Below the pieces are notes generated by a model that was given only the letters and a program-made list of their open reading frames with translations, did not search any database and was not told the origin of the DNA. This document shows positions 26,939 through 34,249 of a stretch of 40,650 nucleotides of DNA, in pieces. The translations under genes were made by a program, and so were the position numbers. The stretch comes from an uncultured Candidatus Saccharibacteria bacterium (GTDB lineage Bacteria; Patescibacteriota; Minisyncoccia; Minisyncoccales; PEYH01), in contig CAYRCT010000002.1 in assembly GCA_964422845.1 (NCBI GenBank), positions 1-40,650 of the forward strand, given 5' to 3'. Every line of letters starts with the position of its first letter. Within the stretch, counting starts at the first letter, position 1.

Positions 26939-28249
26939 ATGAGTTCTCTTCTTAAATTTTTTATCCAAATAGGAAAATTAAGGGAAGCAAAAAGAAGCGG
27001 TTGGTTGGCTTATGGAGTTAAAAATCCTGAAACTACTGCTGACCACGTTTTCAGAGCAGCGATTTTGGGCTGGCTGTTAAATAAGAAGAAAGGATTAAAT
27101 GAAGGTAAGATTATAAAAACAATTTTAATCCATCATTTATATGAATCCTATATCAGCGATGTAACTCCTTATGGTTATCTTTTGCCCAAGGGAGTTGCTT
27201 CTCAGAAAGAGAAGACGATTCTGAAAGAAATTCTTAAAAATCCGCCTCCTTTTAGTTTAATAGAGGAGCAAAAACGGCTTACCAAGAGACACGAAGAAGA
27301 AAAAAAAGCCGTTAAAAAGCTTATTTCTAAATTGTCGAACAACGTTAGAGTAGAGATAGAAAGTTTATGGCAGGATTATTTAAATAGAAAAACTAAGACA
27401 GGTAAGTTTTCTTGGCAAGCGGCTAAAACAGAATCATTTTTGCAGGCAATGGAATATTGGAAAAAAGAGGGCAAGATTGAACATAAATTATGGAATCGTT
27501 GGGCAAAGAAAGCATTGAGAGATCCAGTTATTTCAAAATTTAAAAAAGAAATAGATAGAAAATTTTTCAATCCCCGGAAAAAGAAAGATAGAAATATTTT
27601 AACCGAAATGTTAGATTTTTTTATTGAGATTGGCAAATTAAAAAGATTGAAAAGAACAGGATGGTTACTCAGAGGAGTTAAAGATGCCGAGACAGTTGCT
27701 CAGCACACATATAAGATGACGATGATGAGCTGGTTTTTGGGAAGCGTCAAGGGATTAGACACAGATAGGACTGTCAAGATTGCTTTAGTCCACGATTTAT
27801 GCGAAGTGTATGCTGGCGATCAAACTCCTTATGACTCAATCATTGATTCAAATAATTTAAGCAAAAAAGAAATACATGAAATAGTCAGAAAATTACCTAG
27901 AATTCCGTATTCTAAGAAACTAGAATGGCTACTCAAGAAAAGGACTAAAGAATGGAAGGCAATTGTAAGATTAACCTCTAGTCTTCCCAAAGAATTGCAA
28001 GATGAAATTATTGGACTTTGGGTAGATTTTGAAGAGGGACTGACCAGAGAGGGACGATTTGTTGCCCAAGTGGATAAGATGGTTAATCTTTTCCAAGCCA
28101 TTGAATATTGGAAAAAAGATAAAAAATTTCCAATAATTCCCTGGTGGATTAGCGTGAAAGAACAGGTAGATGATCCGATTTTATTAAAATTTATAGGAGA
28201 ATTAGACAAAGAATTCGCTATAGCCAAACAGGTTAGTAAGAAAAGATAG
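26939..28249 (+). CDS. tandem HD-domain phosphohydrolase (two YfbR/HDDC2-like 5'-nucleotidase domains)
   Basis: Two homologous halves start IQIGKLREAKRSGWLAYGVKNPETTADHVFRAAILGW and IEIGKLKRLKRTGWLLRGVKDAETVAQHTYKMTMMSW. Each also has an HH/HD and a D motif. Confidence 0.75.
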   Translation: MSSLLKFFIQIGKLREAKRSGWLAYGVKNPETTADHVFRAAILGWLLNKKKGLNEGKIIKTILIHHLYESYISDVTPYGYLLPKGVASQKEKTILKEILKNPPPFSLIEEQKRLTKRHEEEKKAVKKLISKLSNNVRVEIESLWQDYLNRKTKTGKFSWQAAKTESFLQAMEYWKKEGKIEHKLWNRWAKKALRDPVISKFKKEIDRKFFNPRKKKDRNILTEMLDFFIEIGKLKRLKRTGWLLRGVKDAETVAQHTYKMTMMSWFLGSVKGLDTDRTVKIALVHDLCEVYAGDQTPYDSIIDSNNLSKKEIHEIVRKLPRIPYSKKLEWLLKKRTKEWKAIVRLTSSLPKELQDEIIGLWVDFEEGLTREGRFVAQVDKMVNLFQAIEYWKKDKKFPIIPWWISVKEQVDDPILLKFIGELDKEFAIAKQVSKKR

Positions 28250-28358: not shown

Positions 28359-30095
28359 ATGATAAATCAAGAAATAGCTAACATTTTATACGAGATTGGA
28401 TATCTCTTAGAAATAGAAGGGATTGCCTTTAAACCGCAGGCCTATGAAAAAGCGGCTATTGTTTTAGAAAATTTAAAACAAAGCATTGCTGACATATATA
28501 AACAAGGAGGAACTAAATCGTTGATAATTGTTCCCGGGATTGGGAATGGCATTGCTAAGAAAATAGAAGAGTATTTAATAACAGGGAAAATTAAGCATTA
28601 CGAAGAACTAAAAAAGAAATTTCCCGTAGACATTAATGGACTAATTGCCGTAGAGGGTGTAGGACCCAAAACAGTTAAAAGATTGTACAGAGAGTTAGGT
28701 ATAAAAAATGTAAACGATTTGGAAAGAATAGTAAAAGAGCATAAAATAGCACCTTTATTTGGTTTTGGAGAGAAGAGAGAGAAAAATATTTTAGAAAGTA
28801 TAAAATTTTTGAAAAAAAATAAAAGCAAATTTCTTTTGGGAGAAATTTTGCCCGCAGCGGACAAAATAAAAAATGTATTATGTCGATTAGCGGAAGTTAA
28901 AAATTTTAGCATTGCCGGTTCCTTGAGGAGAAAGAAAGAGACAATAGGAGATGTTGATTTTCTGGTTGTCTCAAACGAGCCCGAGAAAGTAATGGATGTT
29001 TTTGTAAAACAACATGGGATAATTAAAGTTTGGAATAGAGGAAAGACCAAAAGCTCAATTCGCTTGGACTCCGGGATTGACGTGGATTTAAGAGTAGTGC
29101 CTGCAAAAAGTTTCGGTTCCGCGCTTCAGTATTTTACAGGGTCTAAATATCATAATATTGCTTTAAGGAAAATAGCCATTGATTTGGGTTTTAAACTCAA
29201 CGAATATGGGCTTTTTAAGGGACACAAAATGATTGCCGGAAGGAGTGAAAAGGGTATTTATAACGCACTGGGAATGGATTATGTGGCACCGGAACTTAGA
29301 GAGAATAAAGGAGAAATAGAGGCGGCTTTGGAAAACAATCTTCCCAGATTGATTAATTATGGAGATATCAGAGGAGATTTGCATTGTCATTCTAGTTGGG
29401 ATGGCGGGAAAAATTCTATTAAACAAATGGCGGAAACAGCCATGAACATGGGTTATCAATATCTTGGGATTTCCGATCATACTAAATTTTTAAGAATAGA
29501 AAACGGACTTAACGAAAAACAACTTGTTCAACAAAGGAAGGAGATAAATAAATTAAATTTACGATTCGTAGCGCGTAATTTAGAATTCAAAATTTTGCAG
29601 GGAGCAGAAGCCAATATTTTAAAAGACGGTTCGATTGACATAAACGACGAAGCCCTTAAAAAATTAGATTATGCTATTGCTGGCATTCATTCTCATTTTA
29701 AGCTTTCTAAAAATCAAATGACGGAAAGGATTATTAAAGCGATGAGAAATCCACACATAAAGATTATTTCTCATCCTACGGGCAGGATTTTGAAAAGAAG
29801 AGATGAATACCAAATTGATTTTGATAAAATTTTGCGCGCAGCTAAAGAAACGAACACTATTCTAGAGATTAATTCTTTTCCTAGCAGAATAGACTTAAAC
29901 GATATTAATGTTAGGAGGACAAAATTAGCGGGAGTGAAAATGGTGATTAATAGTGATGCTCATCATAAAAATCATTTGCGATTTATCGAATTTGGAATTG
30001 CTCAAGCTCGACGTGGTTGGGCAGAGAAAAAAGATATTATTAATACTGCTCCTCTTAATGGATTGTTGGGGATAAAAAAATTATTGGAATTTTAG
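28359..30095 (+). CDS. polX: family X DNA polymerase with C-terminal PHP domain (PolX)
   Basis: N-terminal HhH segments NQEIANILYEIGYLLEIEG and GIGNGIAKKIEE. The Pol-beta nucleotidyltransferase motif is GSLRRKKETIGDVDFLV. PHP motifs are GDLHCHS and SDAHH. Confidence 0.9.
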   Translation: MINQEIANILYEIGYLLEIEGIAFKPQAYEKAAIVLENLKQSIADIYKQGGTKSLIIVPGIGNGIAKKIEEYLITGKIKHYEELKKKFPVDINGLIAVEGVGPKTVKRLYRELGIKNVNDLERIVKEHKIAPLFGFGEKREKNILESIKFLKKNKSKFLLGEILPAADKIKNVLCRLAEVKNFSIAGSLRRKKETIGDVDFLVVSNEPEKVMDVFVKQHGIIKVWNRGKTKSSIRLDSGIDVDLRVVPAKSFGSALQYFTGSKYHNIALRKIAIDLGFKLNEYGLFKGHKMIAGRSEKGIYNALGMDYVAPELRENKGEIEAALENNLPRLINYGDIRGDLHCHSSWDGGKNSIKQMAETAMNMGYQYLGISDHTKFLRIENGLNEKQLVQQRKEINKLNLRFVARNLEFKILQGAEANILKDGSIDINDEALKKLDYAIAGIHSHFKLSKNQMTERIIKAMRNPHIKIISHPTGRILKRRDEYQIDFDKILRAAKETNTILEINSFPSRIDLNDINVRRTKLAGVKMVINSDAHHKNHLRFIEFGIAQARRGWAEKKDIINTAPLNGLLGIKKLLEF

Positions 30096-30169
30096 AAATA
30101 TTAGATTATAATAAAGAATTGCAGAAGTCGTTAAGTTTAAAAATAATTAATAATTAATTTATAAAAATT

Positions 30170-33100
30170 ATGAACAATTATTCTCAAAAAAATAAAATAA
30201 AATTTTCTAAATTTATTTTTTCTCTAGTTTTTGTAAATATTTTAGTTTTAATTTTTGTTATTAATATTAAAAGAGTGGATGCTTATTCTCCAATCCCTCC
30301 AGGATATAAGTTTGAGAATAATCTTGATCTAAATGATCGCAACGAAGACGTCAAATATTTGCAAAAATTTTTAGAATATCAAGAATTTTTTCCCGCAGAT
30401 ACAAACACTGGTTATTTCGGAAATATAACCAATAAAGCAGTGATTAAATTTCAAGAAGAATATTCAGACGAGATTTTAAAACCGTGGGGGATATCTTATG
30501 GAACAGGACATGTAGGTAGAACTACCATTGCAAAACTTAATAAATTCCTTGATGTTTTTGACGAAAATAATCCCAGTATTCCTTGGCCAGAACCGTTATC
30601 GGACAATACAGCGGGTCGCGAAGAATACGAGCAAAGATTTCCATCGTCAGAGTCGCAATCTATCAAGGAAGTTTATCAAACTCCCTCCGGTCATTCCATA
30701 AACATTGTGGTGATTGTTAATTCCGTTCTCCAGAATTCTATCCAAGATTCGCTAGATCAATATATTGTAGATTTAGAGAATGACGGATATTCAGTTACAC
30801 TAGTCAGTTATAGCGGGGGTACGCCAAAGAAATTAAAGACCTATTTACAAGAGAGATATTCAAATGGTTTAGATGGTTGTTTATTAATAGGAGATCTTCC
30901 AGTTCCTTGGTTTCATCGAGCCTATCGTAATCAATACCGCCAAGTTGTGCAAGAGGAATTCCCTATAGACTTGTATTATATGGATTTAGACGGAAGTTGG
31001 ACTGATTCTAATCGCGACGGAACACTTGATGTTCATTCAGATGGATCGGGAGATAAGGAGCCAGAAATATGGGTAGGAAGACTTACTGCTTCTTCTTTGG
31101 GGAACGAAGCTGAATTGTTGAAAAATTATTTCATTAAGAATCACAAATACAGAACAGGTGTTTTATTGTTAGAAAATAAAGGTTTAGTTTACTCTGATGA
31201 CGATGGGAACAGTTATTATCCATTAGATTTAGCATACGACAAAGTTACTACTATACATAATAGGACCACAACTAATAGTATAGATTATGAAAGAAGACTT
31301 ACCCAAAACTATGAATTTGTTTATGTAGCGGTTCATTCTTCTCCTCAATTTCATCGTTTTGAAATACCTGGCGGATGGGACGGATTCACTTATAATCACG
31401 AAATAAAGTCTATTGATCCAAAAAGTTCTTTCTATCTTCTTAACGCTTGTTCTAATTCAAGATATACCTCACCTCAATATATGGGAGGTCATTATATTTT
31501 TTCAGATACTTACGGATTAGTGGCAATAGGAAGCACCAAGGCATGTAATATTTTAGATACAAGGTCTTACTTTAAAACTCTTGGGAGTGGAGGGAGTTTT
31601 GGAGACGCACTTAAAAATTGGTGGATTAGCAGGGCTCCTTATGGAGAAATGGATCGTCATCTTTTTTATGGCGTGACTTTATTAGGAGACCCTACACTTA
31701 AAGTTTCTAGCAAAATGGTAACCATTTCTCCGGACGTTGCTTCAAATACGTATTCCGAAATCAAAGAAAAAGAGTGTGCTACCAAAGGATGCAGTAATTC
31801 AGTGATCTTTGAGTGTTCAGAATTCGAATGCGATCCAGCTTCAGACGGAAGACTTGTTATTTCTCTTAATGGAGATTACGATTCTCCTGGTAAATACTCT
31901 AAAATATATATTGATGATAATTATCTTGCTGATATAGGAAGCTTTAATCCAGGAACTGCTTGCGAGTGGCAATCCGAAACTCTTACTATTCCAAAATCCG
32001 ATCTTCAATCATATTTTTCAGACGGTTTTTTAGAAGTAACATTTAAAGATCAAAATGAAGTTGATTGCTGTTGCAACTCTAAACATAGAGCTAGCCTGGA
32101 ATTTGAATATGAAAACACAGAAGAAGATTCTACTGGTAATAAAACAGATCAAGAAGATCCTGTCTCCGGAACTATTTCTATAAACAAAACAAGAGCAAAT
32201 ATTGGGGAGATTATTACACTCACAGTTACAGGAGAAGACGATAATGGTCTTAATTCTCTATGGGCTAATTACCAAGGGGATTGGCACGAGGAACAAGTTA
32301 ATGGGACTGAAGCTACTAAATCGTTTGCTTTTTCTGAATCAAAAGTAGGAACTTATAAATATTATGGTTATGTATATGGCTCTAAATTAAACGGGGATTC
32401 AGAAAACACATGGACAGAACCGAGTGTGGCAACGGTAGTTATTGAAAGAGACACAGATTCTGGAGACTCTGGTGGAGACTCTGGTGGAGATTCGGGCGGA
32501 GATTCTGGAGGAGATTCTGAAACAGACACCGGAGGAAACATCGAAATAGAAATCAAAATAGATATCACAGAAGATACTACAGAGAACATCACTTGCTCCG
32601 ACACAGATCAAGGTGACATTTATATTAAGGGCTATTGCGAGGATTCTCACCACACGAATGATGGTTGGGACGTATGCTCTGACGACGTATCTCAAGGAGG
32701 ACTATCAGAATATACTTGTAGTAATTCGTGCTCGGGTCAGAGTGATTCAGAAAACACTTTCTCGTGCTCGGGTCAGAGTTGTAATCTTGAAGATTCAGAA
32801 CATGCTTGCAGTGATTCATCCTCGAGTCAAAGTTGTAATATTAAACATTATTCTTGTCCCAATGGATGCAAAGACGGAGCTTGCATTAAAGATAAAGCAG
32901 AGCAAGCAGAGCAAGAAGACCCTGTTTCCGGAGCTATTTCCGTAAACAAAGAAACAGTCAATGTTGGGGAGAATATTACACTCACAGTCACAGGACAAGA
33001 CGATAATGGGCTTAATTCTCTATGGGCCTATTACCAAGGGGATTGGCACGAGGAACAAGTCAGCGGGACTGAAGCTACTAAATCATTTACTTTTTCTGAA

Positions 33101-33928
33101 TCAAAAGCAGGAACTTATACATATTATGGTTATATATATGGCTCTAAATCAAACGGAGAGTCAGAGAATGCATGGACAGGGTCGAGTGTGGTAACGGTGA
33201 TTGTTGGAGGAGATACAGACTCTGAAGGAGACGCTACAGAAGACAATTCTTGTTCCGACACAGACAAAGGGAATATTTATGCTAAGGGATATTGTGAGGA
33301 TTCTCGCCACATAAACGATGGTTGGGATATGTGCTCTGGTGGAAACGACTTGTTAGAATATAATTGTGTTGACTCATCTTCTGGTAAGGTTTGTGGGACA
33401 AAACATTATTCTTGTCCCAATGGATGCAAAGATGGGGCTTGTATTAGGGATTCTGTAGAAGAAACTACAGAAGATAATTCTTGCTCTGACACAGACAAAG
33501 GGAATATTTATGCTAAGGGATATTGTCATGATTCTCGTGGAACAAATAATGGTTGGGATATGTGCTCTGGTGGAAACGATTTATTAGAATATAATTGTGT
33601 TAATTCATCTTCTGGTCAAGTTTGTGGAACAAAGCATTATTCTTGTCCCAATGGATGCAAGAATGGGGCTTGTATTAGGGATTCTGCAGAAGATACTACA
33701 GGAAACATCACTTGCTCTGACACAGACAATGGAAACATTTATTTTAAGGGATATTGTCATGATTCTCGTGGAACAAATAATGGTTGGGATATGTGCTCTG
33801 GTGGAAACGATTTATTAGAATATAATTGTGTTAATTCATCTTCTGGTCAAGTTTGTGGAACAAAGCATTATTCTTGTCCCAATGGATGCAAGAATGGGGC
33901 TTGCGAGTTTGCCAATGTCACCATGTAA
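30170..33928 (+). CDS. giant secreted modular protein: PG-binding domain, clan-CD (gingipain-like) peptidase-like domain, Ig-like and 8-Cys repeat modules
   Basis: 1252-aa ORF with an N-terminal hydrophobic helix. The PG_binding_1-like motif is DVKYLQKFL...GYFGNITNKAVIKFQ. The His/Cys contexts are YVAVHSS (H389) and YLLNACSNS (C427). It has 2 Ig-like and 4 Cys-rich modules. Confidence 0.8.
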   Translation: MNNYSQKNKIKFSKFIFSLVFVNILVLIFVINIKRVDAYSPIPPGYKFENNLDLNDRNEDVKYLQKFLEYQEFFPADTNTGYFGNITNKAVIKFQEEYSDEILKPWGISYGTGHVGRTTIAKLNKFLDVFDENNPSIPWPEPLSDNTAGREEYEQRFPSSESQSIKEVYQTPSGHSINIVVIVNSVLQNSIQDSLDQYIVDLENDGYSVTLVSYSGGTPKKLKTYLQERYSNGLDGCLLIGDLPVPWFHRAYRNQYRQVVQEEFPIDLYYMDLDGSWTDSNRDGTLDVHSDGSGDKEPEIWVGRLTASSLGNEAELLKNYFIKNHKYRTGVLLLENKGLVYSDDDGNSYYPLDLAYDKVTTIHNRTTTNSIDYERRLTQNYEFVYVAVHSSPQFHRFEIPGGWDGFTYNHEIKSIDPKSSFYLLNACSNSRYTSPQYMGGHYIFSDTYGLVAIGSTKACNILDTRSYFKTLGSGGSFGDALKNWWISRAPYGEMDRHLFYGVTLLGDPTLKVSSKMVTISPDVASNTYSEIKEKECATKGCSNSVIFECSEFECDPASDGRLVISLNGDYDSPGKYSKIYIDDNYLADIGSFNPGTACEWQSETLTIPKSDLQSYFSDGFLEVTFKDQNEVDCCCNSKHRASLEFEYENTEEDSTGNKTDQEDPVSGTISINKTRANIGEIITLTVTGEDDNGLNSLWANYQGDWHEEQVNGTEATKSFAFSESKVGTYKYYGYVYGSKLNGDSENTWTEPSVATVVIERDTDSGDSGGDSGGDSGGDSGGDSETDTGGNIEIEIKIDITEDTTENITCSDTDQGDIYIKGYCEDSHHTNDGWDVCSDDVSQGGLSEYTCSNSCSGQSDSENTFSCSGQSCNLEDSEHACSDSSSSQSCNIKHYSCPNGCKDGACIKDKAEQAEQEDPVSGAISVNKETVNVGENITLTVTGQDDNGLNSLWAYYQGDWHEEQVSGTEATKSFTFSESKAGTYTYYGYIYGSKSNGESENAWTGSSVVTVIVGGDTDSEGDATEDNSCSDTDKGNIYAKGYCEDSRHINDGWDMCSGGNDLLEYNCVDSSSGKVCGTKHYSCPNGCKDGACIRDSVEETTEDNSCSDTDKGNIYAKGYCHDSRGTNNGWDMCSGGNDLLEYNCVNSSSGQVCGTKHYSCPNGCKNGACIRDSAEDTTGNITCSDTDNGNIYFKGYCHDSRGTNNGWDMCSGGNDLLEYNCVNSSSGQVCGTKHYSCPNGCKNGACEFANVTM
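32153..33904 (+). repeat. intragenic module array in gene 1
   Basis: Ig-like modules lie at 32153-32446 and 32915-33205. A GGDS 12-nt tandem repeat lies at 32456-32518. The 8-Cys modules lie at 32594-32884 (expanded), 33251-33442, 33482-33673 and 33713-33904. Confidence 0.85.
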
Positions 33929-34084
33929 TCAGAAAAGAATAATTTTTTTAAGATAATTAAAGTTCTAATCTTTGCTAAAACGAAATTTAAAAGTTCCGGA
34001 ATTACGGGGCTTTTAAGATATTAAGAATAATATTTAAAAATGTATTTTAAATATCTGTTTTTGTTTTCTCTACAATTTTCTCAA
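33929..34084. repeat. copy 1 of a ~156-nt downstream flank (copy 2 at 37040-37195)
   Basis: My hand alignment gives roughly 90 percent identity. It includes a degenerate copy of the 37101-37125 terminator and the last 12 codons of rplT. Confidence 0.85.
34047..34084 (-). pseudogene. relic 3' fragment of rplT (last 12 codons plus stop)
   Basis: It reads EKIVEKTKTDI*, against the intact rplT C-terminus EKIIEKTKTDI* at 37158-37193. There is no upstream rplT body. Confidence 0.75.
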
Positions 34085-34200
34085 TGCGATTTATCGAATC
34101 TGGCATTGCTCAAGCTCGACGCGGTTGGGCAGAGAAGAAAAACATTATTAATGCTCAATTTTTAAAAAAGTTATCAACATTCTTCAGCGCTAAATAATTC
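34085..34200 (+). pseudogene. relic 3' fragment of polX
   Basis: 34085-34152 aligns to 29977-30044 with about 6 mismatches in 68 nt. Its frame reads RFIESGIAQARRGWAEKKNIIN, against the genuine RFIEFGIAQARRGWAEKKDIIN. Confidence 0.75.
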
Positions 34201-34249
34201 GTATTTTTTATAAATTAAGGTTATCATAAATTAATAATCATAATTATTA

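Follow-up and report, generated by a model that had tools for sequence, protein, structure and literature searches.

A probable tandem segmental duplication, joined bluntly, between polX and rplT of an uncultured Patescibacteria genome

Introduction

How did two giant genes come to stand side by side between polX and rplT, and why does the short spacer that separates them carry what look like the ends of both neighbouring genes? This question is raised by a 40,650-nucleotide stretch of DNA from an uncultured Candidatus Saccharibacteria bacterium, which was analysed at its full length and is called the window here. The initial annotation had read the spacer as the junction of a tandem duplication, with a piece of the rplT 3' end fused to a piece of the polX 3' end at 34084/34085. 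Tandem duplications whose join point is the only new sequence are textbook events and arise with or without microhomology. We thus looked at whether the junction, its two sides, the relatives of the locus and the structure of the two genes fit such an event, and at what else could have produced them.

Results

The polX-rplT locus

The G+C content of the window is low (about 30-40%), and the features discussed below are collected in Table 1. The relatives of PolX, with 57-69% identity, are found in Nealsonbacteria, Staskawiczbacteria, Gribaldobacteria and other Patescibacteria genomes. An Rfam search over the whole window returned the tmRNA and one tRNA only. Two details of the right-hand neighbourhood were noted in passing. 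The infC and rpmI reading frames overlap by 50 nt as listed (37665-37714) and the sister loci show the same overlap, so that one start or stop assignment may be wrong or the overlap may be real and conserved. The tmRNA gene follows smpB directly, with an overlap of 8 nt at the listed smpB end.

Table 1. Positions, in the window, of the genes, relics and candidate signals of the polX-rplT region.
Feature	Position	Strand	Remarks
HD-domain protein	26939-28249	+
polX	28359-30095	+	family X DNA polymerase, 578 aa; pol beta-like domains and PHP; Pfam: DNA_pol_B_thumb, HHH_8, HHH_5, PHP
Last 119 nt of working polX	29977-30095	+	left end of duplicated unit 1
Promoter-like site upstream of giant gene 1	30084-30112	+	TTGGAA-17-TATAAT; consensus scan 10/12
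Giant gene 1	30170-33928	+	1252 aa
Spacer between the giant genes	33929-34261		333 nt
Decayed terminator hairpin downstream of gene 1	33987-34016	+
rplT relic	34047-34084	-	right end of duplicated unit 1; last 11 codons, stop and 2 nt
polX relic	34084-34197	+	left end of duplicated unit 2; homology starts at 34085; ends with TAA at 34195-34197
Copy 2 of the polX/giant-gene spacer	34198-34261	+	with the presumed gene 2 promoter
Giant gene 2	34250 or 34262 to 37039	+	925 aa from ATG 34262; 929 aa from ATG 34250
Intact two-way terminator hairpin between gene 2 and rplT	37098-37127		predicted by terminator scan
rplT (L20)	37158-37511	-	Pfam Ribosomal_L20, E = 2.5e-38; L35 and IF3 adjoining
Last 38 nt of working rplT	37158-37195	-	right end of duplicated unit 2
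rpmI	37514-37714	-
infC	37665-38177	-
tmRNA	38253-38594	-	Rfam
smpB	38587-39036	-

The ends of rplT and polX meet at a blunt junction

The sequences that follow the two giant genes (33929-34084 and 37040-37195) are about 89-90% identical over 156 nt, and this match is the end of a 398-nt alignment (33688-34084 against 36799-37195) with 88.9% identity and an E-value of 1e-139. Its last 38 nt, which form the rplT relic, agree with the end of rplT at 37 positions. From 34085 to 34152 the sequence matches polX at 29977-30044 in 62 of 68 positions (blastn E = 1e-19 to 1e-21). The flank match of roughly 90% and the significant similarity of both fragments to their parent genes thus bear out the initial annotation, but three of its details needed correction. 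The rplT fragment is made of 11 codons, the stop and 2 nt and not of 12 codons and the stop; the polX segment matched, with exactly the 6 mismatches reported approximately before, is not the end of the gene, which continues to 30095; and the polX relic does not stop at 34152 but continues in frame to its own stop codon.

We assigned the bases at the junction one by one. Base 34084 is A, as in rplT but unlike polX, and base 34085 is T, as in polX but unlike rplT. Each flanking base matching one parent only, the breakpoint 34084|34085 is exact and blunt, at the place first proposed. Microhomology-mediated illegitimate recombination is recognised by bases common to the two parental breakpoints, and there are none here (0 nt); the nearest common word, GATTT, is 2 nt out of register. 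Unequal crossing-over between repeats or insertion sequences is recognised by a long repeat or a mobile element at both borders. Comparison of the window with itself revealed no repeat common to the polX and rplT tails, and no transposase, integrase or IS-like reading frame is present at the borders of the duplicated unit.

The rplT tail, up to 34084, therefore directly abuts the polX tail, from 34085, meaning that right-end sequence is joined to left-end sequence. The two units that meet there (29977-34084 and 34085-37195) lie on the same strand, head to tail, and are colinear at both ends and in their 3' halves. This is the arrangement that the tandem-duplication reading had predicted: a piece of the right flank abutting a piece of the left flank between two direct copies.

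The junction is found in independent assemblies

Repeats of 230-300 nt abound in the giant genes, several contigs (L082, L083) end within gene 1, and the window and other assemblies disagree by one 231-nt unit in this gene; these are the circumstances in which repeat mis-assembly could have made the copies or their junction. The junction itself, however, lies in unique, non-repeated sequence. It is identical, together with the whole spacer 33929-34261, in three other short-read contigs (L081, JGI 3300039186; L092, JGI 3300039187; L084, ENA ERZ27316679) that come from three samples and different assemblers and that all carry both giant genes between polX and rplT. Since three independent metagenome contigs agree, the junction is not an assembly artefact, which answers the concern raised with the initial annotation as far as short-read assemblies, the only kind compared, can answer it. 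The two units differ by about 10%, so that they are not a collapsed or expanded repeat, and their 5' halves are entirely different. E-values of 1e-19 to 1e-139 also speak against chance similarity. An origin by artefact or by chance is thus extremely unlikely. A slightly degenerate 35-nt junction pattern gave 0 matches in metagenome_contigs, a collection that evidently does not hold the source contigs, and this result is silent on prevalence.

The 231-nt difference concerns a cysteine-rich unit of gene 1 (B module, 33218-33903) that is present in the window and missing from all three contigs (1252 compared with 1175 aa). It is either real copy-number variation or a repeat collapse.

The polX relic resembles the sister genes and the working polX tail does not

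The join A|TG makes an in-frame ATG at 34084 and thereby opens the 37-codon reading frame of the polX relic, MRFIESGIAQARRGWAEKKNIINAQFLKKLSTFFSAK, which for this reason was called as a gene in two assemblies (L081, L092). The relic encodes ...RRGWAEKKNIINAQFLKKLSTFFSAK, fitting the tail of PolX in the sister species, DIINTQPLKKLLTFFN; the tails of about 200 relatives, of the DIINTQPLEKLLKFFK type, fit it more loosely. Past 34152 the relic is recognisable only against the polX tails of the sister species and not against the polX of the window. The working polX ends with DIINTAPLNGLLGIKKLLEF, a form seen in none of the about 200 relatives, and its C-terminal tail (30045-30095) reads TAPLNGLLGIKKLLEF. 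This tail appears to be the product of an 18-nt (six-codon) internal insertion, and such a remodelling would account for the local alignment of the two copies stopping at 30044/34152. A foreign polX locus was considered as the source of the 17 C-terminal codons of polX and the spacer of copy 1. The tail is absent from the PolX of about 200 relatives, and the idea was dropped as unnecessary since the pattern fits an internal insertion and the copy 1 spacer matches the sisters near the start codon.

The 6 mismatches within the 68 nt were compared with the sister genes. Four are private to the relic (including Phe to Ser and Asp to Asn) and two fall at sites that vary among the sisters; in addition, relic and working polX have in common two derived bases against all sisters. 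At the single difference in the rplT relic, the relic keeps GTA (Val) as in the sisters and the working rplT has ATA (Ile). Both relics thus seem to behave as unselected fossils of the state at the duplication, presumably without function.

Beyond the 68-nt match, the end of the polX tail and the spacer of copy 2 (34153-34264) align with the sister-species spacer at a score that 0 of 500 shuffles reached. Over this stretch the score of copy against copy (11.5) is below that of each copy against the sisters (18-31). A simple recent duplication does not predict such an order, which calls for either indels that occurred separately in the two copies or a boundary of recombination near 30045/34153.

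A role for the relic itself was also weighed, either as a 37-residue peptide of the PolX C-terminus driven by the ATG at 34084 or as a regulatory leader of gene 2. The reading frame is open from the ATG made by the join, and two pipelines called it a gene. No Shine-Dalgarno-like sequence stands upstream, however, and Rfam gave no family match within 33929-34261. The changes are a mixture of non-synonymous and synonymous ones and the ancestral stop is lost, as neutral decay predicts, and 37 formerly coding codons are expected to be still open at about 10% divergence. We consider a functional relic scarcely credible, and there seems to be no reason to assume that the frame is expressed. The frame 34084-34197 should not be called a gene.

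The duplicated unit would be a complete transcriptional cassette

The promoter-like site of gene 1 overlaps the last polX codons, with its -35 element inside the codons of the C-terminal polX tail described above. It aligns with a conserved TTGTAT...TATTAT found in the sister species just after the polX stop and before the giant gene. The sites proposed for gene 2 (34171-34198 and 34231-34260; 9/12 in the consensus scan) are weaker than that of copy 1.

At the other end of the unit, the sisters and copy 2 carry a hairpin AAAAGCCCCG-N6-CGGGGCTTTT (GCCCCG-N6-CGGGGC) that separates the giant gene from rplT. In copy 2 it folds equally well on either strand, at -20.4 kcal/mol (+ strand) and -18.9 kcal/mol (- strand). 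In copy 1, two C-to-T changes have left the + strand fold (-14.8 kcal/mol, via two G.U pairs) and broken that of the - strand (only -7.9 kcal/mol). The loss of the - strand fold fits the fact that no rplT transcript would reach copy 1. Judged by these motifs and predicted folds, what was duplicated would be a complete cassette running from promoter to terminator.

The two giant genes are alike in their 3' halves only

Both products begin with a signal peptide and end in a series of two modules, A being Ig-like and B a cysteine-rich module of roughly 70 residues. In gene 1 the signal peptide is followed by PG_binding_1, a C25-type cysteine peptidase domain and modules A-B'-A-B-B-B. Gene 2, according to Pfam, has a signal peptide, a coiled coil, PG_binding_1, a Kre9/KNH-like Ig domain, a PKD domain and then A-B-A-B-A-B. 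The C25 domain of gene 1 (Peptidase_C25, PF01364) scores 46.5 bits, the curated cut-off of the family profile being 23, with E = 3.9e-12, and the match extends from position 25 to position 374 of the 374-position profile; the domain is a predicted peptidase by this match. The B module (C-S-D-T-D...C-P-N-G-C-K-D-G-A-C; for example 32594-32900) has no Pfam match. It recurs in the proteins of the sister species and in the more distant L001. A literature search on giant cysteine-rich surface proteins of Patescibacteria found nothing relevant. An exact look-up of the gene 2 product of the window returned no record, because the other assemblies differ by a few residues. The start of this product, MNKKFKISIL, matches MNKKFKFLII of the sister L089 at the nucleotide level, and the start codon is likely to be the one at 34262.

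From the first A module (about 32142 in gene 1 and 35330 in gene 2) to their ends, the two genes are 83-94% similar at the nucleotide level. Their N-terminal halves have only PG_binding_1 in common, with 41% amino acid identity over 83 residues. Whether these halves "diverged or were swapped" had been left undecided: since they are nearly unrelated while the non-coding flanks of the same units differ by only about 10%, a swap is favoured and slow divergence disfavoured.

Which half is the newcomer is suggested by more distant relatives. The N-terminal architecture of gene 2 is found after polX in L001, L060 and L062, at the same locus, which points to gene 2 as the resident form and to the N-terminal half of gene 1 as a later replacement. 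The best outside matches of that half are C25 peptidases of Zixibacteria and other phyla, 46-52% identical, and no relative exceeds 52%. These distances are too great for a donor to be named.

The duplication is younger than the split from the sister species

The sister loci aligned (L088, L089, L091) belong to species whose PolX is 83-84% identical to that of the window. The initial annotation had suggested a comparison with relatives carrying one copy, and the sisters provide it: L089/L090 (1200 aa) and L091 (890 aa) have one giant gene between polX and rplT, and neither relic was found in the three sister loci that span the gap (L089, L090, L091). Their giant genes use the same A and B modules, plus CARDB-type domains, in a completely shuffled order. 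The databases yielded no single-copy strain of this species; they contain near-identical copies of PolX and the 84% species and nothing between 100% and 84% identity. The state before the duplication is thus reconstructed from the species at 83-84%.

At third codon positions the window and the sisters are 62-73% identical (polX, rplT, rpmI), compared with about 90% between the duplicated non-coding flanks, which makes the duplication much younger than the species split. From these comparisons we infer that it arose in this lineage after the split from the nearest sampled relatives.

The reverse order, a duplication that predates the sister split, was lost in the sisters and was kept similar here by repeated gene conversion, would draw on the sequence exchange that these paralogues do undergo (the seven sites at 35407-35454 in L081, see below) and on module identities that overlap within and between genes (81-97%). 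Yet the 68-nt polX relic ends at the junction, and a conversion tract there would lack a second flank of homology. The relic, with four private substitutions and an ancestral tail, was not overwritten by the working polX, and the derived bases common to the two point to their separation after the species split. With three gap-spanning sister loci that are single-copy and free of relics, we regard an old duplication as very unlikely.

Possible import of a copy from a close strain

A further possibility is that the second copy came from outside. A DNA piece taken up from a close strain, reaching from the polX tail of that strain through its allele of the surface-protein gene to its rplT, would have been anchored by homology in or beyond rplT at one end. 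Its other end would have been joined illegitimately to the resident rplT tail, at a point 38 nt into it, by what is called homology-facilitated illegitimate recombination or transformation-driven merodiploidy. Such an import would readily account for N-terminal halves unrelated save for the 41% match in PG_binding_1, since they could have differed from the start; for a relic with the ancestral polX tail beside a resident polX whose tail is unique; and for the stretch after the 68-nt match, where each copy is more like the sisters than like the other copy. In Streptococcus pneumoniae, tandem duplications are known to arise through transformation (Johnston et al. 2013, PMC3784515). Against it, relic and resident polX have two derived bases in common. 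With about 90% identity, the 68 nt and the 3' flank also stand close to the resident copy, and the sisters are distant from them. Only a very close relative could thus have been the donor, and the databases contain no such lineage, PolX sequences between 100% and 84% identity being missing from them. The illegitimate end shows 0 nt of microhomology. An import would moreover require the C25-peptidase gene 1 to be the resident, yet it is gene 2 that has the architecture of the relatives at this locus. We therefore take an import to be unlikely, though with a chance large enough to be kept in mind; the junction is the same whether the second copy came from within the genome or from a close relative by one-sided homologous recombination.

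Probable exchange between the modules of the two genes

The assemblies differ within the first A module of gene 2. In L081, seven variant sites at 35407-35454 all equal module A1 of gene 1, and L084 has a shorter gene 1-like patch in the same module (A1 region 35326-35487). With module identities that overlap within and between the genes at 81-97%, these patches suggest gene conversion between the tandem paralogues or, less probably, mixing of short reads.

The gap between polX and rplT is itself variable. Among the Patescibacteria loci examined, 50 have the two genes as convergent neighbours. Between 40 nt and 6.5 kb separate them there, and the content is mostly unrelated from genome to genome, so the gap is likely an insertion hot spot. 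One could go further and see it as a dedicated site of surface-protein diversification, in which the tandem pair would act as a variation system of two cassettes. The exposed repeats would then be continually shuffled, through gene conversion and unequal crossing-over among modules 81-97% identical, much as an episymbiont might vary its antigens or its host range, and this would be why the duplication is maintained. The gene 1-identical patches in gene 2, the presence or absence of the 231-nt unit, the shuffled module order of the sisters and the variable gap content across 50 genomes hint at this reading, which we hold to be unlikely.

Discussion

Taken together, these results indicate that the locus is probably the product of a genuine intragenomic tandem duplication, made by an illegitimate join that was blunt, with a later replacement of the 5' half in copy 1. 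The course of events may have been as follows. A single surface-protein gene, with its own promoter and terminator, would have stood between convergent polX and rplT. A blunt end-to-end illegitimate join would then have linked a point 38 nt inside the rplT 3' end to a point about 116 nt inside the polX 3' end, leaving two head-to-tail units with polX whole at the left and rplT whole at the right. The redundant tails caught at the join would have become unselected relics. Later, the 5' half of copy 1 would have been exchanged for an N-terminal half with a C25 peptidase domain, copy 2 keeping the resident architecture; a six-codon insertion would have remodelled the tail of the working polX; the terminator of copy 1 would have decayed on the strand where it was no longer needed; and the repeat modules of both genes would have continued to exchange sequence. 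The molecular mechanism of the join is read from its product, and bluntness does not point to any particular enzyme or process.

In mechanistic terms the event is ordinary: it is a well-supported example of a known process and reveals no new mechanism or kind of element. Its value is that of a clean and datable natural case, in which a very small, streamlined genome gains a second gene for a large surface protein. An illegitimate, blunt join would have doubled the whole cassette, and one of the copies would later have been remade to include a peptidase domain. As fossils, the relics retain the ancestral ends of the two flanking genes and indicate that it is the working polX tail that changed after the event.

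The proteins resemble the modular, fast-evolving secreted or cell-wall repeat proteins, with their signal peptide, PG_binding_1 anchor and Ig-like or PKD repeats. With the C25 peptidase domain in gene 1 and a module order that is shuffled between sisters, they also recall the modular C25 (gingipain-type) proteins. Unlike the known modular surface proteins (Ig-like, PKD, CARDB, Cys-rich), they contain a B module without a Pfam match, and unlike the known C25 peptidases, gene 1 has its nearest relatives at only 46-52% identity and in other phyla.

As to the duplication, the merodiploidy triggered by transformation in S. pneumoniae needs repeats (IS861 fragments) at both ends and yields duplications of 100-900 kb (PMC3784515). 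It resembles the present case in being a tandem duplication with a spare copy free to evolve, and a process of this type would suit organisms thought to rely on DNA uptake. The unit here, however, measures 3-4 kb, with no repeat common to its borders.

There is also a likeness to the RecA-independent tandem duplications of Salmonella, E. coli and Acinetobacter, for which microhomology is reported not to be strictly required (PMC11111574). As in these, the copies are direct and head to tail, the only new sequence is the join of right end to left end, the flanking genes are each intact once, and no mobile element stands at the borders. Laboratory duplications are unstable amplifications under selection, whereas the present one is old, fixed, about 10% diverged and found in a natural population; it also differs from them in belonging to an uncultured bacterium with a small genome, in having 0 nt of microhomology and in that the 5' half of one copy has since been replaced.
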